In this document: in pieces, positions 4,478 through 28,178 of the stretch
How positions within the stretch are numbered: position 1 is the first letter of the stretch
Layout of the letters: each line of letters starts with the position of its first letter
Source: Candidatus Helarchaeota ASGARD archaeon Hel_GB_B
GTDB lineage: Archaea > Asgardarchaeota > Lokiarchaeia > Helarchaeales > HEL-GB-B
Length of the DNA: 32,000 nt
Direction: 5' to 3'
NCBI GenBank assembly: GCA_005191425.1
Contig: SUPR01000003.1
Coordinates: 1 to 32,000, forward strand
Made by a program: the position numbers and the translations under genes
Notes under the pieces: generated by a model
Databases searched by the model: none
Told to the model about the DNA's origin: nothing
What the model saw: only the letters and a program-made list of their open reading frames with translations

Positions 4478-5161
4478 CTATTCAAAATAATCTGTAATTT
4501 TTTTAATAGTTTTTCTCTCTTCTTTTTTAAAAATGTTGAATTCATGGTCTAGATTTAAAATTTTCTGCATTTTTAATGGCATAAGATTTTTTGCAAATTT
4601 TACATTCCTTTTTTCTTGGATATATTGTGAATTATAGTAATATTTCCAGTCATTTTTACTGAATTTTCCAAGATTAATTCTTTTAGATGTATTTTTTTTA
4701 ATAAATTTTAAAAAAGTATCAAATTCTTTCTCATTTAAGATGTAAAATTTCTTTTTAAACCGTCTATAATTTATTTTAATATCTGTTTTTTTGGTCCCTA
4801 AATAAATTTGAAATTTATTTTTTAGGCAGATAAAAAATTCCGGAAATCTATTGCAGAAAAAACCTAAAAGTAAGTCATAGATATCATGTTCCGAATTTAT
4901 TGTGGACATAAGTATCATTTCAGGGAATAATTCAAAATGTGCCCACCCTTTAACTCTATGAAATTCAGTTGCGACCTCTCCAGCCATTTTATAAAGGTTT
5001 TTAGCTTCTAAGGAAACTTTATTTATAAATAAATCCGGATTTTTAACGTAATTAGTCATAATTTTTTCAATTAAATTTGAATTTTTCGCATTTTTATGGC
5101 GTTTTGCCCAAAAAATTAGATTATTAATATCATTTCTAAATAGTTTTAAATTGTAACTCAA
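4478..5161 (-). CDS. DUF4130 / TIGR03915-type putative DNA metabolism protein
   Basis: VATEFHRVKGWAHF, EHDIYDLLLGFFCNRF and WKYYYNSQYIQEKRN...LMP resemble the DUF4130 conserved blocks; 26 nt downstream of its usual radical SAM partner. Confidence 0.8.
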   Translation of the reverse strand: MSYNLKLFRNDINNLIFWAKRHKNAKNSNLIEKIMTNYVKNPDLFINKVSLEAKNLYKMAGEVATEFHRVKGWAHFELFPEMILMSTINSEHDIYDLLLGFFCNRFPEFFICLKNKFQIYLGTKKTDIKINYRRFKKKFYILNEKEFDTFLKFIKKNTSKRINLGKFSKNDWKYYYNSQYIQEKRNVKFAKNLMPLKMQKILNLDHEFNIFKKEERKTIKKITDYFE

Positions 5162-5187
5162 TTTTTTTGACCCGACATTTAATGTTC

Positions 5188-6399
5188 CTAATATTTAATA
5201 TTTGTAACATATTTTTGAGAAAAATACTCATCAAGAGATGATTGACGCTTACCATTTACTAGGATAAATGGCTTGGCACGCTTGATTATAACTCCCATAT
5301 TTTTTAATTGAACAAATGAAGTAATTTTGTTTTTTCCATCTTTTATAAATCTATAAATTCTTTTAGCGGATAATGGTCCAATCCCTGGTACCTTCAATAG
5401 ATCTTCTAAATTAGCCTCATTAACTTCAAGTGGAAATAAATCTGAATGAAATTTCTGTGCCGAATAAATTTTCGGGTCTTTATCAAGTGGTATATTGTGT
5501 TTTTCATCAAAATACAATTCGTTAAATTTAAATTTATAGATTCTTAACAACCAATCACATTGATACAATCTATGTTCTCTAATTGATGGTGTTGCATTAT
5601 AATTCTCCAAAGGTGTTCCTTTTATGGGCATAAATGCCGAATAATATCCTCTGTTTAAATTTAATTTTTGATAACACCAATTATTCATTTTCAAAATTTC
5701 AAAATCAGATTCATTTGCTGCACCTACTACATATTGAGTTGTAAATCCAGAAGGTATATATTTTCTATCTCTATTTTCATAAGTTCTTTTATTTTTTAAC
5801 CCTTTAATCCATGATAATCTTGTAAGTATATCTGTCTTATATTCTTTTGTTGAACTTAGATCGCTAAATCTTGATCTATTTGGTGCCTCTAAATTTATGC
5901 TTATCCTATCGGCTATCAAGGCTGCTTCTTTAATTAACGAATAAGATGTTCCAGGTAATATTTTCAAATGAATATATCCCCTAAAATTGTATTTTTCTCT
6001 TAAAATATGCACTGTTTCCAGCATTCTCATCATTGATTTTTCGACATCTCCACAGACAGCAGATGATAAAAACAATCCTTCCACATAATTTCTTATATAA
6101 TAATTCAAAAATAATTTTGATAGTTCCTCTGGCTCAAATGATATTTTAGCCTTCTGATACGCGTGGCTCATATTTGTAGAATTTAAACAATACTTACAAT
6201 CATGTATACATTTGTTTGTATACAAAACTTTTAATAAGCAAACGCGCCTTCCATCTGGTAATACTGAATGACATAATCCAGAAGGAAGTACATTCCCTAT
6301 TCTATTCTTTTGCTTAGTTTTTCGATAAGAATAACTTGATTGACAAATATCATATTTAGCTGCAGCACCTAATACCGTTAACTTCTGATTAGCATCCAA
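5188..6399 (-). CDS. Putative DNA modification/repair radical SAM protein (TIGR03916-like) with C-terminal helix-hairpin-helix
   Basis: KLTVLGAAAKYD, LLKVLYTNKCIHDCKYC (CxxxCxxC), YVEGLFLSS, GYIHLKILPG, ADRISINLE, REHRLYQCDWLLRIY, LLKVPGIGPLSAKRI. Confidence 0.93.
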   Translation of the reverse strand: MDANQKLTVLGAAAKYDICQSSYSYRKTKQKNRIGNVLPSGLCHSVLPDGRRVCLLKVLYTNKCIHDCKYCLNSTNMSHAYQKAKISFEPEELSKLFLNYYIRNYVEGLFLSSAVCGDVEKSMMRMLETVHILREKYNFRGYIHLKILPGTSYSLIKEAALIADRISINLEAPNRSRFSDLSSTKEYKTDILTRLSWIKGLKNKRTYENRDRKYIPSGFTTQYVVGAANESDFEILKMNNWCYQKLNLNRGYYSAFMPIKGTPLENYNATPSIREHRLYQCDWLLRIYKFKFNELYFDEKHNIPLDKDPKIYSAQKFHSDLFPLEVNEANLEDLLKVPGIGPLSAKRIYRFIKDGKNKITSFVQLKNMGVIIKRAKPFILVNGKRQSSLDEYFSQKYVTNIKY

Positions 6400-6552: not shown

Positions 6553-7680
6553 CTACTCAGAAACTTTTTCTATTATAAAAAATGGAAAAATTGGGGCTAA
6601 TAATTCAGTAGCTTTCTCAAATACCATTAAATCTCTAACATCATTTTTAATTTCTTTCTGAAATTTTAACTCAAAATTCTTTAAAAATAAAATTAATGCT
6701 TTATCTAAAAAATAAGTAACTTTATCAGTTATTAATAGTGCTACAGTTTTTTCTCCTGTTTCCATTAGGATACTAAGCCTCTTGCTTGAAATTTCACTTA
6801 TTGCTGTTTCTTCTTTAAAAATTTCTTTAAACACATTATTTATGGCTGATATCATCCCTGACAATAAAACCTCTTCTACGTTAATTTTTTTACGAGTCTT
6901 AAACCGAACTGAATATAAAGGAGTACCTGATTTTTCAAGTACCATTAGCAAATAATTATCATTCGGTAATCTATAAAGATAATTTATATTACTTAAGTAA
7001 GTAATTACAAACATAATTATTCCAATGAATGGGAATATATTTGCATAATTTGATAAATCATTTATTAAATCAGGTTTTGGGATCGATATTGTAAATACAT
7101 TTAAAATAAAGTACATATCGTTTAATAAAGAAATTATAAACCCAAAACTAACAAAAACTAATGCTACAAATAATATTATTGGCATTTTTTCTTTTGTATA
7201 AATATATGTCTTTATATAAATAACTGAACCCATTCCTAAATATACAAATAAAGCTGGCGTCCAATATCCAATATCCGCAAGAACCCAAGCAATATCTGCA
7301 TTGAGTGAATTAACCCGGCAATAAAATACTTGCCATAATCCAATTGTTTGTATTATTAAAAAGCCCGTCATAATCGAAAGTCTTATAGAATTAAGTTTTT
7401 TTGATATTAATTGCTCAAAAAAGATATAAAAGAAAAAGAAATGAAGTCCATACAAATTTAAATGTAATGATTGGAAAAAATTACTAATATTTGTATAACT
7501 TGAGAAAAATAATTCATTAATAATCGCTACCAATCCAGCTAAAAATCCAAATGTCAAACTTATCAAAAATGACCACGCTGTTTTGTGATATCTTATCATT
7601 TGAATTGTAAATAATATCACTAATATTCCAAATGCTATTGTTATAAGCAAGATTGTCCATTCAGTAATTCCTAAAGCCAT
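6553..7680 (-). CDS. Predicted 7-TM membrane protein with C-terminal longin-like domain
   Basis: Seven hydrophobic segments in aa ~8-230. The soluble aa ~241-368 region (LLMVLEKSGTPLYSVRF...LLSGMISAINNVFKEIF...LFLKNFELKF...FEKATELLAPIF) follows the longin-like pattern common in Asgard proteins. Confidence 0.72.
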   Translation of the reverse strand: MALGITEWTILLITIAFGILVILFTIQMIRYHKTAWSFLISLTFGFLAGLVAIINELFFSSYTNISNFFQSLHLNLYGLHFFFFYIFFEQLISKKLNSIRLSIMTGFLIIQTIGLWQVFYCRVNSLNADIAWVLADIGYWTPALFVYLGMGSVIYIKTYIYTKEKMPIILFVALVFVSFGFIISLLNDMYFILNVFTISIPKPDLINDLSNYANIFPFIGIIMFVITYLSNINYLYRLPNDNYLLMVLEKSGTPLYSVRFKTRKKINVEEVLLSGMISAINNVFKEIFKEETAISEISSKRLSILMETGEKTVALLITDKVTYFLDKALILFLKNFELKFQKEIKNDVRDLMVFEKATELLAPIFPFFIIEKVSE

Positions 7681-8447: not shown

Positions 8448-10445
8448 TTAACCATACATGTCCAAATAATGATATTGAATTCTCTTATCTATTTCCTTTT
8501 TCAATTCTTTAAATTCATTTGATTTTATATTTTCAAACTTTAATAATTCTTTTACTATAGATGCAATTTCATTTTGCTCTTCAATATTAACTTTAGGAAT
8601 TGGTAAATCTATTAAATAACTTTTATTAACTCGTGTAAATAATTTTTTATAATTTCCATAAATTAATTGATAATATTTATTAAAAATTTCTGAATTTAAT
8701 ACGGCTAATAAAAAATAAATATTATAATTAGTATTTGATGTTAATTGTAATATCTGTACCGAATCAAGGCAATAATAATTCTCCTTAAAGTCCAGTGCAG
8801 CAATTATTTTTTTAGAAATTCTTTTTATAAGGATCTTAGGTGTTCTATAATTACTTTTATTTTTGTAAATTCTTAAATTATCTGGCTCGAAAACAATATA
8901 TTTTTCTGGAAATCTTTTATTTTTATAATCTATTTTATAACTCAAAATATTATCTATTGAAACAACTTTTACTAAATTTGGATTTTTATTCAAATTAGGG
9001 TTCCTTTTTATATCTTCTTTTGAAATAATCTTGGAATTTGACTTACCAATTTCAATTCCTCTTGAAATTTTAGATATTTTTTTTAATTTAATTAATTCAT
9101 TTTTTTTCAATTTATTAAGAATGACCTTAATTTCATCCCAATCATTTGGTCTAATATTAATTGCAAAATTGTAGTTTGGAAATTCCATAAAATTATTTTG
9201 TCTAATTCTATGTGAAACTCGAAAAACACCTTTTTTTAACTCCTTAGAAGAAACAAATATGATTTTTATATTATTTGTTATTCTTTCAACTTCATTTTGT
9301 GTCTTTTTCAATATTAAAATTACATTTGAGACCCCTCCATCTTTAAAGATACTTCCATTTATTTTTACAATTTGGTCAATACAACAATTGTCCAAAATAA
9401 ATTTTCTAATTAATTTTGATGTCATCCCTGTTAATATAATATCTGGAACAATAAAACCCAAATAACCCCCTTCTTTTAAATTTAAAATTCCATGTTCTAT
9501 AAACAAATTAAAAATATTAACTTGCTTTTCATTAAAGGAAAAATAATTGCTATATTCTTTAAGGACATTTTTTGAAATATATGTCCTATGCGATCGTTTT
9601 AATCGATGCTGTTTCGAATTTCTTAAATTCTTGGCTATAATATAATAAGGTGGATTACCAATAACAACATCATATTTTTCCAGATTCTGAAAAATTAGAG
9701 CATCCTTGTTAAACAAATTTAGACTAAACTCATCATTATTTTTTATATTATAAATAAAATTCAACAAAAATATCTGGAGAGCTACAGGATTAATATCAAT
9801 TCCTGTTAAATAAATATTTTTATGGTCTTTAACTGTTTTTTCATTATTTTTTATTTTTAATAAATAATTTATAGTATTTAAAAGAAATTTACCTATACCA
9901 CAAGAATTATCTAAAATTTTTAATTCATTATTTAACTTTAATATTGGAATTTGACTTAAAATATAATTACATATAAATTCTGGAGTTGAAAATAGTCCAT
10001 AAATTTTTCTTTTATCTTGAAGTACAAAATTTTCATAGTAAAAGTCGATCACTTTTAAATATTCTTTAGTGAATTTATTGTTTTTTTTCTCAAATATTTC
10101 TCTCTCAAATATCTCAGACCAATTTAAACGATCCTTTAAAGATAATAAAATACTAAAATTGGGCAAAATAGAAGAGTTATACATATTTTTTAAATTTTTT
10201 AATGGGGGATTAGTTATTTCAATAAATAATTTATTTATTAGATAATCATTAATATAAAAAATTATTAAATTATCTAAAAAAAAGTTGGTATTATCCTCGT
10301 TTGAAATGTAATTACTAATATTTAGTTTCCATAAATTATTATTCTTTTTTAATTCTTCAATATCTATTCTTTTAAGGATTTTTTCTTTAAATTTCTTTAA
10401 TAATTCCAAAATTTCGTTATTATCTAAATTTTTTTTATAAATCAT
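8448..10445 (-). CDS. N6-adenine DNA methyltransferase (TaqI/Eco57I-like) with C-terminal target-recognition domain
   Basis: RKIYGLFSTP (motif X-like), ILDNSCGIGKFL (motif I), GIDINP, VIGNPPY (motif IV), GYLGFIVP, and a TaqI-C-like KILIKRI...FLLAVLNS...YLIDLPIP region. Confidence 0.88.
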   Translation of the reverse strand: MIYKKNLDNNEILELLKKFKEKILKRIDIEELKKNNNLWKLNISNYISNEDNTNFFLDNLIIFYINDYLINKLFIEITNPPLKNLKNMYNSSILPNFSILLSLKDRLNWSEIFEREIFEKKNNKFTKEYLKVIDFYYENFVLQDKRKIYGLFSTPEFICNYILSQIPILKLNNELKILDNSCGIGKFLLNTINYLLKIKNNEKTVKDHKNIYLTGIDINPVALQIFLLNFIYNIKNNDEFSLNLFNKDALIFQNLEKYDVVIGNPPYYIIAKNLRNSKQHRLKRSHRTYISKNVLKEYSNYFSFNEKQVNIFNLFIEHGILNLKEGGYLGFIVPDIILTGMTSKLIRKFILDNCCIDQIVKINGSIFKDGGVSNVILILKKTQNEVERITNNIKIIFVSSKELKKGVFRVSHRIRQNNFMEFPNYNFAINIRPNDWDEIKVILNKLKKNELIKLKKISKISRGIEIGKSNSKIISKEDIKRNPNLNKNPNLVKVVSIDNILSYKIDYKNKRFPEKYIVFEPDNLRIYKNKSNYRTPKILIKRISKKIIAALDFKENYYCLDSVQILQLTSNTNYNIYFLLAVLNSEIFNKYYQLIYGNYKKLFTRVNKSYLIDLPIPKVNIEEQNEIASIVKELLKFENIKSNEFKELKKEIDKRIQYHYLDMYG

Positions 10446-11218: not shown

Positions 11219-11653
11219 TCATAAGCTATTTTTATAAATCATAATTTCGTCAAGAATTTTTTTAAAACATTCAGCAATAGGGATATAAAGAATACCCGGG
11301 CTTCCCTCTGGGGCAATATAAATAATTAATATGAGGTCGTCAAGGATTGCAACAATTGATCCTTCATTATATATGTTTGTAGCAATTAATTTATCATCAG
11401 TTGACTGCAAAACCGTATATTTAATTCCTTGTAAAAAGATTTCTTGAGAATTTTTTTGCCAATCAATTATAAAATTTCTAATTTCTGAGATTATGTTCCA
11501 ATTACTTGATTGATATAGACAATCCAATGTGAATCTATCAAATACTGCTGCCGCTACTATTTCAGGTTCATCTTTATATAAATCTTCTAAATGTTCTTTT
11601 ATAATATAATTAATACTCTGCTTATAATTAAGATTATTATCAATTGAGGACAT
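11219..11653 (-). CDS. Asgard profilin-like protein (stand-alone)
   Basis: LYQSSNW...IFLQGIKYTVL...DKLIATN...G-IV...IIYIAPEG matches the recalled Odin/Loki profilin pattern (YQSxNW, IQG(I/V)KY, DRLIATN). Confidence 0.85.
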   Translation of the reverse strand: MSSIDNNLNYKQSINYIIKEHLEDLYKDEPEIVAAAVFDRFTLDCLYQSSNWNIISEIRNFIIDWQKNSQEIFLQGIKYTVLQSTDDKLIATNIYNEGSIVAILDDLILIIYIAPEGSPGILYIPIAECFKKILDEIMIYKNSL

Positions 11654-14349: not shown

Positions 14350-16467
14350 GTGATAATAATCAATAAGAAATTAAATTTTTCTATAGTCTTTCATTTTCAT
14401 CAGCCAGTTGACAATTTTGATCACGTTATTCAATTTGCTTATGAAAATTCGTATTTACCGTTACTTAACACAATTTTCGACCATCCTAAAATTAAATGTG
14501 GGCTTCATTTTAGTGGCGGATTATTGGAGTGGTTAATGAGAAAACATCCTGAATATATTGATTTAATAAAAGATTTAGGTAAAAGAAATCAAATAGAAAT
14601 CCTTTCAGGTGGTTTTTATGAGCCAATTTTTGCAGTAATACCAGACGAAGACAAATTAGCTCAAATAAATAAGTTAAAGGATTTTATAAAAACTAATTTT
14701 AACCTTGAATCTTATGGATTTTGGCTTGCAGAGAGAGTTTGGGAGCCACATTTACCAAGAATTCTTGAATTAGCTAAATTAAAATATATTTTAATCGACG
14801 ATTTTCATATTAAGGCAAATGGGCTATCTGAAATAGATACTTTTTATCCATATATAACTGAAGAACAAGGATCTAAAATTACAGTCGTTCCAATTAATGA
14901 ACCATTGAGGTATCTTACCCCATGGAAAAAAGCTGAGGTTACAATAGAATACCTTTCTAAATACCAAACTGATAAAGGCGACCGATTAATTACTTTGATT
15001 GATGACGCGGAAAAAATGGGCGTTTGGCCAGCTGGTGATAGGACAACTTATGATATTTGTTTTGGAACTGGCTATGATGGAACACCTTGGCTACCCAAAT
15101 TTTTTGAATTACTAGAAGATTCAGATTGGCTTAATATAATTACAATTAATGAATATTTACAGAAATATAAACCTCGTGGATTAATTTATATGCCTACTGC
15201 TTCTTATGATAAAATGTCATATTGGGTATTACCTACTCATGCTAGAAAAAGGTTGGAAAATTTAATACAAAAGGCAAAAAATAATGAAATCCCATATTCT
15301 AAAGACATTTTAGAGTTTGTTAAAGGTGGTTTCTGGAGAGGATTTCTAATAAAATATTATGAATCAAACGCAATGCATAAGAAAATGTTATATATCCGGG
15401 ATAAATTAAAGCTTGTTGAAAGTTTATATGGACTAGACTATAAAGGAGAAAAAATTGAAGCTATAAAAAATGCGTGGGATCATATATATAGAGCACAATG
15501 TAACGACTGCTATTGGCATGGACAATTTGGCGGAATATATTTTGGCTTTATGCGGCAAGCTGTTTATCACCACTTGATCAAAGCTGAAAAAATTGTAGAA
15601 AATATAATGTTTAGTTATAAAAATCCAATTACACCAAGTATCAGGGAATATGATATCAATTTTTGCGGTCGAAATGAAATTTTAATGGAAACAAATATGC
15701 TTAACGTCTATATTGATTGTTTTCACGGGGGTAGCATTTTTGAAATTGATGAAAAAGAGACCCAACAAAATATTTTGAACGTCCTTCAACGTAGAAGAGA
15801 AGCTTATCATGACGAAAATGTTCAATTACCATTTGATAGATGGAGAAAATATGCATTTATGGATCATTTTACTAGCGATTCCTTGACTCAAGAACTTATT
15901 ATTAATGATGCCTATAATGAATTAGGTAATTTTGTCGACTCTCAATATGAGCACTCAATTAAACAAGATAATGATAAAATTATCGCATTTTTATGGAAAT
16001 CTGGCGAAATTAAATTAAATGACTATGTTTTTAAAATAAAAATCTCAAAAAGTATTGAGGTTCTGGAGAAAAATCATGAAATTCTCGTTAAATACAAAAT
16101 TCAAAATTTAAGTGAAAAAGACCTGGAAATTAACTATCTAACTGAAATTCCATTTTATTTAAGTGGAGATCTTTCACAAACTAATATTAATATTCCTGGC
16201 AATGATTTTCCGGCTGATTTAAACCAACAATTTAATACAAATGAAATAAGAATAAGTTCAAAAGATTTAAAATTGAGTTTTGATATAAAAATAAGTGAAG
16301 AATGTTTATTTTTTGGTTATCCACTCATTTCCTTTATAAGTACAGATGGTACAAAAAATCCATCATATCAAGGGACATGTATGACACTTGTTAAAAAATT
16401 AAATATAGATGCCGGGGCTGAAAAAAACTTTAATATCTTATTAAATGTATATAAAAATGGGCAATAA
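14350..16467 (+). CDS. GH57 alpha-amylase / 4-alpha-glucanotransferase
   Basis: FHFHQP, LHFSG, EILSGGFYEPI, GFWLAERVWEP (nucleophile Glu), DDAEKMGVWP (acid/base Asp), RAQCNDCYWHGQFGG; ~700 aa, like the Thermococcus/Dictyoglomus enzymes. Confidence 0.92.
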   Translation: MIIINKKLNFSIVFHFHQPVDNFDHVIQFAYENSYLPLLNTIFDHPKIKCGLHFSGGLLEWLMRKHPEYIDLIKDLGKRNQIEILSGGFYEPIFAVIPDEDKLAQINKLKDFIKTNFNLESYGFWLAERVWEPHLPRILELAKLKYILIDDFHIKANGLSEIDTFYPYITEEQGSKITVVPINEPLRYLTPWKKAEVTIEYLSKYQTDKGDRLITLIDDAEKMGVWPAGDRTTYDICFGTGYDGTPWLPKFFELLEDSDWLNIITINEYLQKYKPRGLIYMPTASYDKMSYWVLPTHARKRLENLIQKAKNNEIPYSKDILEFVKGGFWRGFLIKYYESNAMHKKMLYIRDKLKLVESLYGLDYKGEKIEAIKNAWDHIYRAQCNDCYWHGQFGGIYFGFMRQAVYHHLIKAEKIVENIMFSYKNPITPSIREYDINFCGRNEILMETNMLNVYIDCFHGGSIFEIDEKETQQNILNVLQRRREAYHDENVQLPFDRWRKYAFMDHFTSDSLTQELIINDAYNELGNFVDSQYEHSIKQDNDKIIAFLWKSGEIKLNDYVFKIKISKSIEVLEKNHEILVKYKIQNLSEKDLEINYLTEIPFYLSGDLSQTNINIPGNDFPADLNQQFNTNEIRISSKDLKLSFDIKISEECLFFGYPLISFISTDGTKNPSYQGTCMTLVKKLNIDAGAEKNFNILLNVYKNGQ

Positions 16468-16480
16468 ATAGTGTATATAT

Positions 16481-17632
16481 ATGAAAAAATATACTGCAAT
16501 AATTTTAGCAGGAGGTATAGGCTCTAGACTAAGACCCCTAACAACACTTAAACCCAAACCATTAATTCCCGTCGTCAATAAGCCCATGATTCATTATGCT
16601 ATAGACTTACTACGATATAATGGAATAGATGATATTATTATTGTGGTTAGATATTTAGGAGATCAAATTATTGATTACGTAAAATCCAAGGATTGGGGTA
16701 ATGTGCGAATACAAATCCCAGATGTAGAACCTCTTGATACAGCAGATGCAGTAAGAAAAGTTTCTGATTATATTGAAGGCGAAAATATTATTGTCTCGAT
16801 GGCAGATATAATTACAAATATAAACCTTAAAGATAACATACGTTTTTTTGAGGAAAAAAATGCTTTTGCTACTATAAGTATGACCTCTACTAACCAACCT
16901 CAGAGATTCGGAGTTATCTTACTTGATAAAAACCAAAAAATATATATGTTCCTCGAAAAGCCAGGATATAAAGAATTAGTAATTTCTAGTATTATGGACT
17001 CTCATAAAGGTTCGGTTTTCCTCTATACTAATTTGATAAATACCGGACTTTATATTTTTAAAAATGAGATTTTGGACATCCTTAAAAAAGTCGACTTGAT
17101 GGATTTTGGAAAAAATGTATTTCCTTATTTACTAGAACGAGAATATAACTTATATGGATATATTAAGAAATATTATTGGATGGACGCAGGAAATCCAACA
17201 ACTTATAAATGGACTAATTGGGACCTAATGAGAAAATGGGCATGGCCTATATTACCTCCTGGAAATGAAATTATGGAAAATATTTGGATAGGCAAGGGCT
17301 GTCAAATTGACAATGATGTTAATATTGAAAAAGAATTAATCACAATAGGAAATAATGTAAAAATTGAGAAAGATGTTGTTTTAAAAGAGCGTGTAGTCAT
17401 TGGCGATAATTCTACAATTAAATCTGGCTCTATATTCCAAGATACTATAATTTGGGATAATACAATAATCGGAAAAAATTGTATTTCTGAAGACTGCATC
17501 ATCTGTAATGATGTTTTAATTGGAGACAATATTAAACTATATAATTGTATTATAGGAGCTCACTCAGAAATACCTGATAATTATAATATAAATAAAAATG
17601 TTGTAATTGAACCCAATTCTAAATTATCTTAA
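16481..17632 (+). CDS. Sugar-1-phosphate nucleotidyltransferase (NDP-sugar synthase) with left-handed beta-helix C-terminus
   Basis: LAGGIGSRLRPLT..KPKPL, FLEKP, INTGLYIF, DFGKNVFP, YWMDAG, and hexapeptide repeats (IGNNVKI, IGDNSTI, IGKNCIS). Confidence 0.92.
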   Translation: MKKYTAIILAGGIGSRLRPLTTLKPKPLIPVVNKPMIHYAIDLLRYNGIDDIIIVVRYLGDQIIDYVKSKDWGNVRIQIPDVEPLDTADAVRKVSDYIEGENIIVSMADIITNINLKDNIRFFEEKNAFATISMTSTNQPQRFGVILLDKNQKIYMFLEKPGYKELVISSIMDSHKGSVFLYTNLINTGLYIFKNEILDILKKVDLMDFGKNVFPYLLEREYNLYGYIKKYYWMDAGNPTTYKWTNWDLMRKWAWPILPPGNEIMENIWIGKGCQIDNDVNIEKELITIGNNVKIEKDVVLKERVVIGDNSTIKSGSIFQDTIIWDNTIIGKNCISEDCIICNDVLIGDNIKLYNCIIGAHSEIPDNYNINKNVVIEPNSKLS

Positions 17633-17650
17633 TAAATAGTTAATTTATGG

Positions 17651-19018
17651 TTAAACTTTTAATACCGATTCTACTAAATCAAAAATTTCTGAGGCATTTG
17701 CCTTATCTGTCAATTCTGCGCTAAGTCGCAGTCTATCAAAATATACTAATGGTGTTATTGTAATAAACCCTATCTCTTTTCCAAAAAAGACCTTTGATCC
17801 AAATAACATATCAATAATTTTTTCTGCCTTTCCTTTTAGTTTTTCTAAATATTTAGGATAATTGTAAAAAACATCTTGATCTACCACCAGATCTTTTTGT
17901 ATTTTTATAGATTGACTACATTGAGAAATTAATGAACTCAATTTTTCTCCCGACCTTGCAATCAATTCGCATAATTTTAAAGCAACTAAAATGGTATCTG
18001 TAAACGGAGCGTAAATTGGAAATCTTACTTTCCCCCCATCTGAGATACCTAAATTAGCCATTTTTAATCTGATATTATTACTTATATGTCCAGGGATATT
18101 CTCAACTCTAATTAATTTTATATTATATTCATTTGCTATCTCATCTAATATTCTCGTGGTAGTCTGTGAAGTTATTACTATTGGATTTTTTATGTCTTTA
18201 TTTATTAAATCAGTGAAAAATAATGTTATTAATAAATCTGAATCAATAACTGCACCACTTTCATCAAAAAAGATAGCTCTTGAAGCATCAGCATCAAAAG
18301 CAACTCCAAAATCAGCGTCAGCAGAACCTATAATTCGCGACATTTTTCGAATGGAATTTATATTTGGAAGAATACGGGTGTTCTTATACGGTACAAAAGT
18401 ATTTATAGCAATAACATCGATATCTAGACTACTAAATAATGGTGGTGCTGTAATTCCTATAGGACCATTGGCACAATCCATAACTAACCTTATATTCCCT
18501 TTCGATATTAATTTACTATCAATAAATTGTCTCATAGATTTGTGATAAATAGAATGAATCTCTCCTGAAGTCGATATTTGACCAACTTCATGGGGGTGAA
18601 CTCGAATAATTTTCTTTTTATTGATAATATCGAAAATTTGCGTAAAGAAATCTTGTCCATATTCGATTCCATGTGAATTATAAAATTTAATTGAGGTCTT
18701 TCCCTCATATAAATGACCTGCAGTAAACATTACTCCTCCGCTAGCCCCAAATCGTCTAATTGTAAATCTTAATACATTTGTCGATGCAGAATGAATATCT
18801 AAGACATTAACTCCCGCCGACATCAGTCCTGAAACAAATGCTCTTTTTAGCATCCTACTATCTGCCCTATAATCTCTAGCTAAGACAATTACTCCTTTAT
18901 TTTTTAAAAATGTTCCATATGAAACTCCTAATGTTGCTGATAATTCTGGAATAATATCTATATTAGCTCCAGCTACAATTCTATTATTAATCATATATTT
19001 TTCTTTTTTATATTCCAT
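17651..19018 (-). CDS. Phosphoglucomutase/phosphomannomutase-fold protein with degenerate active site
   Basis: ARDYRADSRMLKRAFVSGLMSAG and LVMDCANG are present, but TAGH replaces TASH and FDADASR replaces DxDxDR. Confidence 0.85.
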   Translation of the reverse strand: MEYKKEKYMINNRIVAGANIDIIPELSATLGVSYGTFLKNKGVIVLARDYRADSRMLKRAFVSGLMSAGVNVLDIHSASTNVLRFTIRRFGASGGVMFTAGHLYEGKTSIKFYNSHGIEYGQDFFTQIFDIINKKKIIRVHPHEVGQISTSGEIHSIYHKSMRQFIDSKLISKGNIRLVMDCANGPIGITAPPLFSSLDIDVIAINTFVPYKNTRILPNINSIRKMSRIIGSADADFGVAFDADASRAIFFDESGAVIDSDLLITLFFTDLINKDIKNPIVITSQTTTRILDEIANEYNIKLIRVENIPGHISNNIRLKMANLGISDGGKVRFPIYAPFTDTILVALKLCELIARSGEKLSSLISQCSQSIKIQKDLVVDQDVFYNYPKYLEKLKGKAEKIIDMLFGSKVFFGKEIGFITITPLVYFDRLRLSAELTDKANASEIFDLVESVLKV

Positions 19019-19072
19019 TTATACATCCACGGGCAATGAATTTTTATACATATTTATATTAAATTTCGTGAA

Positions 19073-20503
19073 TTATAATTTTGTGATCAATTTATAGTAT
19101 AATTTTTCGTATTTTTTGGCTGAATTTTTAAACGAGAAATCGGTTTGCATACCTTCTCTTATTATTTTTTTCCACAAATTTTTATTTTTATATATTTTAA
19201 GCGCTCTTATAATTGTCTTTAAAAGGTCTATTGCAGTATAATCTTGGAATACGAATCCATTTCCATTTATTTCTTCATCAATATCTTTAACGCTATCTGC
19301 TAACCCCCCTACTTTTCTAACAATTGGTATAGTACCATATCGTAAACTAATCATCTGATTTAATCCACATGGTTCATAAAATGATGGCATTAAAAATATA
19401 TCCGAACCCGCTTCAATTTGATGTGCCTTCTTAATATTAAATTCAATGTTTGCGCTTATAATATCTGGATAATCTTTACTTGCCTTAAGTAAAATTTCCT
19501 CATATTCCTTTGATCCTTCTCCTAATATTACTAATTGTAAATCAAACTCGGGTAATACATCAATAATTTTCACTATGAGGTCTAGCCCTTTTTGAGATAC
19601 TAATCTTGAAATAATACTTATCAATGGTAAATCCTTTTTTGGAAGTCCATTTATATCTTGCAATTTTAATTTATTATAATATTTATTTTCGATACTATTT
19701 ATTCCATAATTTCTCCAAATATATGGATCAGTCATCGGATTCCATATATCATAATCTATTCCATTTAGAATACCGTACAAATCTGCTTTTCTCTCTCTTA
19801 AAACTCCGTCCAACCCAAATCCAAATTCTGGTTTTTGAATTTCTAAAGAATATGTTTTGCTTACTGTATTCAGTAAATCAGAAAATACAATTCCCCCTTT
19901 TAATAAATTAATTTTATCGTAAAATTCTAAATATTTATAATGAAAATATTTTTTATCTAAACCTAAATTAGCGTATTTAGATTTGTCAAAAATACCCTGA
20001 TATCCAAGATTATGTATTGTAAATAATATACGTGAACTTCTGAAGAATACATCCTTTTTATATATAGTTTTCAAATAAACAGGTATTAATGCACTCTGCC
20101 AATCGTTGCAATGAATAATTTTTGGCTTATATTTTAAATATTTTAATAATTCTAATACTGTTAAAGAAAAAAAAGCAAATCGTTCAAGATTATCTTGATA
20201 ATCGTTATAAATTTGATCTCTATTGTAGAATTTATCATTACCAATTAAATAAACGTCAATATCTGTCCCGGGTAATTTCGTCCAAAAAATTTTTGCGTTT
20301 AAATTAAAAATTGGGACATGTAGTTTCTCCTTAACAACCTTTAAATTAAATTTCTCATTATTGATCTGTTTATATTTTGGTAAAAAAATCTTAATATTAT
20401 GTCCTAAACCATAAATCGCTTTTGGAAGCGCCTCAGATACATCTGCAAGTCCCCCAGTTTTTATAAATGGAAAAACTTCTGATGAAACAAATGCTATTTT
20501 CAT
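19073..20503 (-). CDS. glgA: Glycogen synthase (bacterial-type GT5)
   Basis: KTGGLADV, HCNDWQ, FTIHNLGYQG, VSKTYSLEI, GILNGID, ISRLVSQKG, PSFYEPCGLNQMISLRYGTIPIVRKVGGLADSV. Confidence 0.96.
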   Translation of the reverse strand: MKIAFVSSEVFPFIKTGGLADVSEALPKAIYGLGHNIKIFLPKYKQINNEKFNLKVVKEKLHVPIFNLNAKIFWTKLPGTDIDVYLIGNDKFYNRDQIYNDYQDNLERFAFFSLTVLELLKYLKYKPKIIHCNDWQSALIPVYLKTIYKKDVFFRSSRILFTIHNLGYQGIFDKSKYANLGLDKKYFHYKYLEFYDKINLLKGGIVFSDLLNTVSKTYSLEIQKPEFGFGLDGVLRERKADLYGILNGIDYDIWNPMTDPYIWRNYGINSIENKYYNKLKLQDINGLPKKDLPLISIISRLVSQKGLDLIVKIIDVLPEFDLQLVILGEGSKEYEEILLKASKDYPDIISANIEFNIKKAHQIEAGSDIFLMPSFYEPCGLNQMISLRYGTIPIVRKVGGLADSVKDIDEEINGNGFVFQDYTAIDLLKTIIRALKIYKNKNLWKKIIREGMQTDFSFKNSAKKYEKLYYKLITKL

Positions 20504-24196: not shown

Positions 24197-25018
24197 TTGC
24201 CTAGAATATTACATTTATTAAAATTAAAAGATTATGTAACAGTGTTAGGAAGCTTTTTTGCATTTGTTTCAATAATATTGTCATTAATAGGTTTTTCAAC
24301 GAGAAATAATTATTGGATATTACTATCTTGTCTTTTTATTTTCTTTTCAATTTGTACAGACACTCTAGACGGGCTTATTGCTCGGAAAATGAAGCAAGAA
24401 AATGATATTGGCGTTCAAATTGATTCATTAAGTGATTGTGTCTCATTTGTTATTGCTCCAGCAGTAATGATTTATAGTGCTTTTGGCGGAGGTTGGCTTT
24501 TAATTGCATGTGGAATTCTGGTCGTCTGCGGTGTTCTAAGACTTGCTTGGTTTAATATTGAAGATACAACTGAAGGATATATCGGATTAGTTACTCCTAT
24601 GAGCGCCAGTACTCTTATATTATATTTTCTAATAATTTACTTTTATGAAAAAATTATTTCTACGGGAAATGTTGCTATTAATTCATTTTATTTAAGTTTT
24701 CAAATTTGGGAAAATTATTTAAAAAATGCAATAACTGTTAGTATTGTAGTGATAATCTTGGGTATTTTAAATCTTGCAGATTTCTTGAGATATACTAAAA
24801 AAGTACGTAAAAAGCGAGGTCTATGGCAATATTATATAATTGGAGCTACAATCTCAATAATATCTATAATAATAATTCTTGAAATTTCTGCATTCTTCCC
24901 AAATTTATGGACAATTGGCTTTGTTATTGCCCATGCTTGGTCTGTTGTCGCATTTTGGTGTTGCATTGGTTATATTATTTGGGGTGTTATTACATGGCAT
25001 AAATTAAAAGGTGATTAA
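24197..25018 (+). CDS. pssA: CDP-alcohol phosphatidyltransferase, probably archaetidyl/phosphatidylserine synthase
   Basis: DTLDGLIARKMKQENDIGVQIDSLSDCVSF fits DxxDGxxARx8GxxxDxxxD; LRLAWFN; 3 nt upstream of psd; GGTGA SD before a TTG start. Confidence 0.85.
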   Translation: MPRILHLLKLKDYVTVLGSFFAFVSIILSLIGFSTRNNYWILLSCLFIFFSICTDTLDGLIARKMKQENDIGVQIDSLSDCVSFVIAPAVMIYSAFGGGWLLIACGILVVCGVLRLAWFNIEDTTEGYIGLVTPMSASTLILYFLIIYFYEKIISTGNVAINSFYLSFQIWENYLKNAITVSIVVIILGILNLADFLRYTKKVRKKRGLWQYYIIGATISIISIIIILEISAFFPNLWTIGFVIAHAWSVVAFWCCIGYIIWGVITWHKLKGD

Positions 25019-25021
25019 AAT

Positions 25022-25681
25022 TTGTTTGCTAAAGAAGGTTTTTATATTGTTATTCCCTCTTTTATTGTGAATACATTCGTAATTATTTTGTTCAATTATC
25101 TATTCAATAATTGGTTTCCGCTTTTTGGCTGGTTTTTCTCACCTCTCTTTATTTTAACTGCTTTTTTTACTTTCTTTTTCAGAAATCCGCCTAGAACTCC
25201 TGAAGGCGATGGTATTTTAGCTCCAACTGATGGGACTATTATGTCAATCAAATCTGAAGGCAATAAATTGGAAATGTTTATCGAACTAGCTGCTTCTGAC
25301 GTTCATACCCAAAGAGCTCCTTCTGACGGAAAAATTTTATCTGTTGAACGTATCAAAGGATCTCACCACCCCATTTATTTTATTAATAAAGGCGAAATTA
25401 ATTCTGAATATATTGTCCCGGCAAACAAAAATGCAAGGATCAATATTGAAATGATTGATTCCGATGGCTTACCAATGAAAATAATATTAATAGCTGGTAT
25501 TTTTGCTAGGCGTTGCAAAGCTTATGTTAAACCAGGAGTTGAAGTTAAAAGAGGGCAAAATATTGGTATTATTATGTTTGGAAGCCTCCTCAAATTTGAA
25601 TTGGTAGGTAAATTTAAAATCATTAAAAAAGTCGGAGACCATGTTAAAGCAGGTAAACATGTTATTTTAAAAAAGGTCTAA
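25022..25681 (+). CDS. psd: Phosphatidyl(archaetidyl)serine decarboxylase proenzyme
   Basis: MFAKEG, FFFRNPPR, APTDG, DVHTQRAP, AGIFARR, GIIMFGS (Gly-Ser self-cleavage giving the pyruvoyl cofactor). Confidence 0.92.
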   Translation: MFAKEGFYIVIPSFIVNTFVIILFNYLFNNWFPLFGWFFSPLFILTAFFTFFFRNPPRTPEGDGILAPTDGTIMSIKSEGNKLEMFIELAASDVHTQRAPSDGKILSVERIKGSHHPIYFINKGEINSEYIVPANKNARINIEMIDSDGLPMKIILIAGIFARRCKAYVKPGVEVKRGQNIGIIMFGSLLKFELVGKFKIIKKVGDHVKAGKHVILKKV

Positions 25682-27041: not shown

Positions 27042-28178
27042 CTAGAAGCACCTGTGGACTACGGGTGGACCAATTTCATTGTATTCCTTTCGAGTAACCC
27101 ACATCTTCTGAAATGTCTTTAATGAGGCTAAAATTGAGCCACCTATCCAAACGGAATACATTCTTTCAGGAGGTGCTATAATTTTCACTTCTACATTGTC
27201 TGGTATCATCTCTGATATCTCTTTTGTCAATCTCTCTTTTAGTCCTTGATACATTGAGCTACCTCCTGATAATATGATATTACCATATAAATCTCTTCGT
27301 AAGTCTATATCACATTTCGATACTGCTTGGACAATTACTTCATCAAGGGGCGGAGTTTCTTTTCCCACAGCCCCTGGGTTAAAGAATACCTCTGGTGCTA
27401 AAAATCTCTCAACACCTATAATTAAAGTGGACCCATCTGGGAGTAAATACGATTTTTCCATTCCGCTTACTTTTTCTGCATATCGCAATTCTTTTTCTGG
27501 GTCAAGTGCTACATAACATAATTTCTCTTTTATATCTCTAACAATTTCTTTTTCTGCTGATGTTGTTAATGAATATCCTCTCTGTCGTAATAGCCTCATT
27601 AAGTATTCAGTAATATCCCTTCCTGCTAGGTCTAACCTTGAAATAGCATGTGTCAGAGCAAACCCTTCATAAATTGGTACAATATGTGTAACTCCTGTTC
27701 CTGAGTCGCAAACAAGTCCGGTAGTACGTCCTGAAGCATATAATGAGAGAACTGCTTGCATTGAAACATAAAGTGCTGGAACTCCAAATGTTTCAAACAT
27801 AATTTCACACATTTTCTCTCTATTAGGTCTTGGGTTTAGTGGTGGTTCTGTTAAAAGTATAGGATGCTCAGCAGGGTCAACTCGTAAATCTGTATAAAAT
27901 GTATAATGCCAAATCTTCTCCATAGCACCCCAATCTTCCACTATTCCGTGTCCAATTGGATATGATAGCCTTAAAACACCTCTTAGTTGTAAAGCTTCCT
28001 CTCCAATGTAATATTCCCTAGTATAATGTTCTACATCTGACATTATTGAAGTAAATTTTGGATAGCCAATTAGAGTTGGGAAAACTGATCTGGGTTGGTC
28101 TTCACCTGCATAGCCATTTTTTGTGATTCCTGTCCCATTATCTATTACAATTGGTTTTTGAAATACTCCTTCTTCCAT
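27042..28178 (-). CDS. Actin (conserved Lokiactin/Asgard actin)
   Basis: [121 protein letters not shown]; 378 aa. Confidence 0.99.

Follow-up and report, generated by a model that had tools for sequence, protein, structure and literature searches.

An Asgard archaeal gene joins a seven-helix membrane domain to a cytoplasmic longin domain in a single chain, and we read its product best as a seven-helix (7TM) sensor of prokaryotic type with a longin as its output. The gene (P0001; 6553..7680, minus strand) is intact, starts with ATG and encodes 375 aa. It lies in a window of 32,000 nucleotides, the whole stretch of DNA analysed here, from a Helarchaeales genome (Lokiarchaeia; 3.54 Mb, 28% GC, 94% complete). 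Our whole proposal, a one-chain membrane sensor whose longin platform recruits or switches a small GTPase, has a probability of roughly 0.4. An earlier note made from the sequence alone had likewise proposed a receptor that signals to a small GTPase. The receptor half of that proposal gained support from a GPCR-like fold nearest to prokaryotic 7TM sensors, from kinase-fused sister proteins and from a variable outer and conserved inner face. The GTPase half did not, given the lack of gene linkage in the core family, the lack of GAP motifs and the presence of the same longin subtype on unrelated proteins. Fold, topology, family, conservation pattern and the use of the unit as a kinase input in relatives were all computed.

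The protein belongs to a widespread family that current annotation overlooks. The 375-aa query has no match in Pfam or NCBIfam. Its closest homologue comes from the same genus and is labelled Helarchaeota, and 22 further homologues share 34–67% identity over the full length, one partial copy excepted. A profile search returned 1693 matches at E<1e-3 among 50% identity clusters, and more than 100 of the best 150 are full-length proteins of 350–450 aa. The membrane-domain profile alone matches in 77 of 301 Asgard genomes and 36 of 70 genera; every translated full-length strong match to it also carries the C-terminal domain. Core-family frames found with this profile are nearly always 350–450 aa, with up to seven copies per genome and tandem pairs common, so the paralogue count that the earlier note had asked for reveals expansion. 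Members with a named source belong to Helarchaeota, Ca. Harpocratesius, Thorarchaeota and Ca. Heimdallarchaeum, each annotated as hypothetical. The core family also occurs in Ca. Harpocratesius repetitus and two species of Ca. Heimdallarchaeum, whose genomes are near-complete and in one contig each. Its profile has no match in Promethearchaeum syntrophicum MK-D1; this cultured archaeon carries three tandem 7TM-longin genes of a sister subfamily near DSAG12_03431 (QEE17594.1). In many sister-subfamily members (among them L110, L113–L115 and L154) the longin is followed by an extra 70–120 aa, for which Pfam gave no match in the members tested. Occurrence beyond Asgard was covered by a pattern scan of GTDB genomes and Atlas taxa. 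A record labelled 'Deferrimicrobium' was rejected as a bacterial occurrence, its gene content being that of a genome from the same archaeal order.

The genes around the family member do not form a conserved module with it. A PRTase and an N6-methylase gene lie upstream and a radical-SAM/DUF4130 pair downstream; we rejected them as a module because only the upstream pair recurs, and in the same genus. Scans for promoters, terminators and repeats stayed at chance level. Several neighbours merit mention in their own right. A radical-SAM/HhH gene (TIGR03916, over cut-off) followed by a DUF4130/TIGR03915-like gene (4478–6399, minus strand) is a known putative DNA-repair pair, unlinked to the 7TM-longin gene. 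The N6-adenine methylase (8448–10445, minus strand) has a specificity domain of TaqI type, and no nuclease gene is evident beside it. The window further encodes a 144-aa profilin (11219–11653, minus strand; weak to Pfam Profilin, PDB 5zza_P at E 3e-12 and 7pbh 'Profilin' at 2e-7) and a 378-aa Asgard actin (27042–28178, minus strand; PF00022, E 2.6e-134). A glycogen-type cluster (14350–20503) comprises GH57, nucleotidyltransferase, phosphomutase and bacterial-type glycogen synthase GlgA genes, and a CDP-alcohol phosphatidyltransferase gene adjoins a phosphatidylserine decarboxylase-family gene (24197–25681, plus strand).

The N-terminal domain (aa 5–230; 6991..7668, minus strand) crosses the membrane seven times. 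Hydropathy of the single sequence gives only about five strong peaks; averaged over 115 homologues it gives seven, at about aa 8–28, 37–57, 67–89, 100–121, 132–155, 167–189 and 211–230. An AF2 model built from 115 sequences (pLDDT 95.9, pTM 0.92) places helices at aa 5–31, 36–58, 63–92, 98–123, 129–162, 165–195 and 215–230, with a short helix 8 next, which bears out the seven hydrophobic helices first seen in the sequence. The high pTM of the two-domain chain suggests that the 7TM and longin domains adopt a defined arrangement in the model. Basic residues concentrate in loops 1, 3 and 5 (K+R per sequence 3.0, 2.3 and 3.2) over loops 2, 4 and 6 (0.65, 0.57 and 0.71). The N-terminus therefore lies outside and the longin inside, and the extracellular C-terminus that would have undone the receptor proposal is not what the charges indicate.

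The membrane domain has a GPCR-like helix arrangement. Compared with solved structures, it is most like GPCRs, which align with it over all seven helices (Z 13.7, rmsd 4.2, 223 aa). Identities are 4–12%, and unrelated helical bundles can score as high in Z; by Foldseek, no GPCR exceeds a TM-score of 0.55. Among predicted structures the model of the membrane domain alone comes closest to bacterial 7TM sensors on histidine kinases, GGDEF and PP2C proteins, with TM-scores of 0.62–0.72. Fungal RTA1 (TM 0.67), LYCHOS (Z 12.5), ACER3 (Z 12.0) and AdipoR2 (Z 11.5) also match, and microbial rhodopsins do so weakly. The protein shares helix arrangement and topology across all seven helices with GPCRs and GPCR-fold proteins (TAS2R, P2Y, Ste2, LYCHOS/GPR155, RTA1). 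Looser parallels are an acidic residue at the inner end of TM3, a tyrosine ending TM7, and helix 8. Unlike GPCRs, the family consensus lacks DRY, CWxP, NPxxY and the conserved disulfide cysteines. A PDB sequence search with the family profile found no GPCR, and no G-alpha (PF00503) match passed the cut-off in the 94% complete genome. The loose GPCR analogy drawn earlier is valid for fold and topology, not for family membership.

Profile comparison gives a link to prokaryotic 7TM sensors only through an intermediate. Weak Pfam matches appear within the family (PF07695 in 9 of 114 members, PF16927 in 2 of 114), with no member at cut-off. Direct alignment of the family with Asgard HisKA_7TM by hhalign gave 20%, not above control families or reversed alignments. 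A transitive route connects them: the family aligns to the sister subfamily at 96.8% (E 2e-10, 192 columns), and the sister subfamily to HisKA_7TM at 85% (E 6e-6, 209 columns in register), where reversed controls gave 1.5–5%. HisKA_7TM (PF16927) and 7TMR-DISM_7TM (PF07695) kinases and 7TM-GGDEF proteins likewise have seven helices, an outer N-terminus, an inner C-terminus and an output after TM7. Compared with HisKA_7TM and 7TMR-DISM proteins, the output here is a longin with no enzyme domain, and no extracellular DISM domain is present. Structural likeness to GPCRs has precedent among prokaryotic 7TM-output proteins in E. coli DgcT/CdgI (PMC10760455).

Sister proteins that join the 7TM-longin unit to a histidine kinase are the best evidence that the family senses. 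Four Lokiarchaeia genomes of four genera encode 7TM-longin-HisKA-HATPase fusions (L148:647-2593, L149:13-1902, L151:759-2642 and L152:196-2022), which are kin and not independent cases. The core-family membrane profile matches one of them at E 4e-6 over aa 6–214. Their longin is of the core-family subtype (97%), terminal FP included. The fusions were reached via the sister subfamily; a search for longer proteins bearing the core-family membrane domain found none, itself weak evidence. A further sister protein (L150) carries a C-terminal winged helix in place of the kinase. Because relatives join the 7TM-longin unit to histidine kinases, the 7TM-longin protein is probably a sensor.

Conservation follows the pattern of a variable outside and a constrained inside. 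Membrane proteins are commonly more conserved on the cytoplasmic side, and here the outer face is the less conserved (p 8e-8), in helices (entropy 2.96 vs 2.64) and in loops (3.36 vs 2.66) alike. Mean identity to the query is 19% in the outer half and 31% in the inner half. Family conservation reveals no invariant polar residue inside the bundle and no strongly conserved ligand pocket. Five polar residues had been singled out beforehand, and all are where they were said to be; only D136 (56%) and D188 (53%) are conserved in the family, whereas E56, H73 and H80 are not (17, 11 and 8%). D136 (7273..7275, minus strand) sits at the outer end of TM5 with Y139 (64%), and D188 (7117..7119, minus strand) at the outer end of TM6. 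These three are the only moderately conserved outer polar residues and are candidates for a ligand pocket.

The cytoplasmic face offers a possible path from the bundle to the longin. E164 in the TM5–TM6 loop (7189..7191, minus strand; 74% conserved) is a candidate salt-bridge partner of R237, with a coupling z of 6.9. This pair ranks fifth among long-range couplings, E89-R100 is also in the top five, and E164-R237 connects the TM5–TM6 loop with the helix entering the longin. From sequence covariation, we consider it a plausible relay from the bundle towards the longin. The joint itself, a helix 8/linker at aa 231–240 (6961..6990, minus strand), has the consensus N-x-D-Y-x-Y-R-L-P and is helical in the model at 232–236; Y234, Y236, R237 and P239 are conserved at 79, 81, 83 and 90%. 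Inter-domain couplings from 201 sequences stayed at noise level, impossible cross-membrane pairs included, and single out no longin face as the one in contact with the bundle.

The C-terminal domain (aa 241–368; 6577..6960, minus strand) is a longin, the fold that eukaryotes use to dock small GTPase switches. In the model its strands lie at aa 242–249, 254–260, 296–298, 303–308 and 312–318 and its helices at 270–288, 323–345 and 351–364. The order is beta-beta-alpha-beta-beta-beta-alpha-alpha with a five-stranded sheet and no roadblock N-terminal helix. Two C-terminal helices distinguish a longin from a roadblock domain (PMC10933270), and the domain is therefore a longin. Structure comparison (VIA) matched Fuzzy (Z 11.8), Sec22 (Z 11.8) and VAMP7 (Z 11.6) at rmsd 2.8–3.3, and roadblock MglB at Z 11.5 over 104 aa. 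The longin-like signature that the earlier note had quoted from this soluble region is present, and model topology and structure matches uphold the fold it assigned. The Foldseek comparison it proposed gave Bet5, Trs23, AP-sigma, Mon1-Ccz1 and MglB for the longin, but neither this model nor that of the membrane domain had a match at E<=0.001. Sequence matches are weak: Pfam Fuz_longin_1 in 16 of 110 members (best E 2.2e-5) and a Bet5 profile at E 0.009.

Conserved features of the longin resemble those of GEF platforms in part. G252 in the beta1–beta2 loop (6925..6927, minus strand) is 97% conserved. Helix alpha-1 (aa 270–288; 6817..6873, minus strand) presents a small-residue face of S274, G275 and A279 (58, 77 and 80%); in eukaryotic longins this is the surface for dimerisation and GTPase docking. 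A family-specific F-P-F motif closes the chain (aa 365–367; 6580..6588, minus strand; F365 97%, P366 99%), with a coupling between A328 and F367; FP[FY] occurs in only 2 of 32 longin-like ORFs of the host genome, query included. In longin GAPs the arginine finger sits in beta4–beta5. GAP longins combine it, as a conserved residue, with a GP motif at the beta1–beta2 loop (PMC12290439). Unlike the GAP longins NPRL2, FLCN and SMCR8, the family has no GP motif, and Arg is not conserved in aa 305–314 (6–10%). Mon1-Ccz1, Fuzzy-Inturned and TRAPP Bet5/Trs23 share the longin fold (Fuzzy Z 11.8, rmsd 3.3), the beta1–beta2 glycine and small alpha-1 residues, the Mon1 equivalence being by motif position. 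The GTPase partner of Mon1-Ccz1 and of TRAPP is bound by a pair of longins via alpha-1, where bulky substitutions abolish activity, and a Mon1 G232-K233 double mutant loses GEF activity (PMC5216073). In contrast to these platforms, a single longin here sits on a polytopic membrane domain with no conserved lysine behind the glycine: position 253 is mostly L, I, V, M or T, where Mon1 has Lys and the GAP motif Pro. The 'NPRL2-like' longins described in the preprint text of Liu et al. (10.1101/2020.10.19.343400) are likewise Asgard proteins of longin fold.

Whether the longin platform serves a small GTPase is a tentative matter that we put a little short of even. Matches to the Ras family number 43 in the host genome, alongside about 40 related longin-like ORFs. 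A GTPase gene lies within 1.5 kb of only 1 of 43 core-family genes (6% background), and a search of the query contig found none. Small GTPases and longins occur by the dozen in Asgard genomes, and gene order seldom pairs the two (PMC10933270). In the sister subfamily, a Rab-like GTPase gene is convergent with a 7TM-longin tandem pair at 8 of 8 loci (L087–L094), all of one genus. These Rab-linked longins mostly lack G252 and G275, which weakens the case for the glycines as GTPase contacts.

The longin could instead be a general relay or dimerisation plug on a 7TM sensor, serving non-GTPase partners, an alternative that we judge rather unlikely. Such a plug would capture or release longin-tagged HTH regulators, a helicase or PCI proteins, or modulate a histidine kinase in trans. 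The longin subtype is also fused in the host genome (G000) to MFS-like transporter domains (C136:22789-23736 and C164:8653-10014; L031 and L033), HTH proteins, a DEAD-box helicase with a C-terminal longin (C106:14234-16897), PCI proteins and giant surface proteins. Found on so many unrelated proteins, it may be a general docking module. HTH-longin and other fusions are among its closest longin paralogues in this genome, the only effectors found fused to the 7TM-longin unit are histidine kinase and, once, a winged helix, and the core family has no GTPase gene linkage. The preprint text of Liu et al. describes many longin/two-component fusions and argues that Asgard signalling is still centred on two-component systems (10.1101/2020.10.19.343400). 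Against this alternative, none of the genome's 10 HATPase_c proteins is a longin-like ORF, and the alpha-1 small-residue motif that the core family keeps is absent from all four kinase fusions, which suggests a different partner. The genome also encodes a second, distant membrane-longin fusion (C182:21249-22373; L032/L117). Seven stand-alone membrane proteins of 220–240 aa match its membrane profile (C26:18681, C104:1932, C150:55425, C122:24333, C147:6682, C164:6682 and C182:22978), and three of them adjoin longin genes.

The protein is less probably a constitutive membrane anchor or a cargo or lipid chaperone than a ligand-gated receptor. It would then place its longin at the membrane as SNARE and coat longins are placed, or handle lipids, as do some GPCR-fold proteins such as RTA1, LYCHOS/GPR155 and the GOST proteins. 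Sec22, VAMP7 and AP-sigma stand among the longin matches at the same Z as GEF longins, the membrane domain matches RTA1 and LYCHOS, and the ligand pocket is not strongly conserved. However, a seven-helix bundle with conserved salt bridges on its cytoplasmic side is more than a plain anchor needs, the 7TM-longin unit drives histidine kinases in relatives, and an expansion into paralogues whose outer faces diverge agrees with receptors. We consider an anchor or chaperone unlikely.

It is very improbable that the 7TM fold serves here as a membrane enzyme, a channel or a photoreceptor, for instance a CREST hydrolase or rhodopsin with an accessory longin. CREST hydrolases (ACER, PAQR) carry conserved SxxxH and HxxxH zinc ligands. 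ACER3, AdipoR2 and, weakly, microbial rhodopsins match the fold, and TM3 holds two histidines. But H73 and H80 are unconserved, TM7 has no HxxxH or His pair, the query has no retinal-binding lysine at aa 212–230 and the family none conserved in mid-TM7, and no polar residue of the bundle is invariant. Missing both catalytic and chromophore residues, this alternative is largely refuted. It is scarcely credible that the protein is merely what truncation has left of a 7TM-longin histidine kinase, with hardly any function. Longer kinase-bearing relatives do exist, but the kinase-less 350–450-aa form dominates in 36 genera, where its frames are intact and its C-terminal FP is nearly invariant.

The preferred reading, a 7TM sensor with a longin output to a GTPase, can be drawn as a chain of steps in which we infer ligand binding, dimerisation and the GTPase as partner. 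The HisKA_7TM/7TMR-DISM-like domain would detect an outside or membrane signal in its variable outer pocket, for which D136, Y139 and D188 are candidate residues. The change would pass through the conserved cytoplasmic face (E89-R100, E164-R237 and helix 8) to the closely attached longin. The longin may pair with a partner, a second longin or a roadblock protein, along helix alpha-1 and the beta-2 edge. A full-length homodimer prediction scored 0.35 against a mark of 0.42, a value that counts neither for nor against a dimer. The paired platform would then recruit or switch one of the many small GTPases in the cell, acting as a scaffold or GEF-type module more probably than as a GAP.

Published accounts cover the parts of this protein rather than the fusion. 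We found no literature description of a 7TM-longin fusion, Liu et al. being covered as preprint text. That text reports that longins have expanded in Asgard archaea and are fused to two-component domains (Fig. 5c), and it mentions no 7TM or transmembrane longin fusion (10.1101/2020.10.19.343400). A 2026 preprint mentions '7TM proteins' of Asgard archaea and clusters labelled as GPCRs; the passages found in it contain no longin fusion, and the searched text of Kostlbacher et al. and Eme et al. holds no 7TM-longin statement.

As a widespread family without annotation, the 7TM-longin proteins are a concrete candidate for an upstream input to Asgard small GTPases. We know of no upstream input to these GTPases and longins. 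In its broadest form, the idea is that Asgard GPCR-fold receptors control small GTPases directly through a built-in longin, without heterotrimeric G proteins, and arose when the histidine kinase that a prokaryotic 7TM sensor had as its output gave way to a GTPase regulator of eukaryotic type; we regard this as possible but doubtful. Ordered as HisKA_7TM kinase, 7TM-longin-kinase and 7TM-longin alone, these architectures suggest how two-component sensing could have led to GTPase-type signalling. This is testable, with sister genes in cultured MK-D1 and the core family in Ca. Harpocratesius repetitus and Ca. Heimdallarchaeum.
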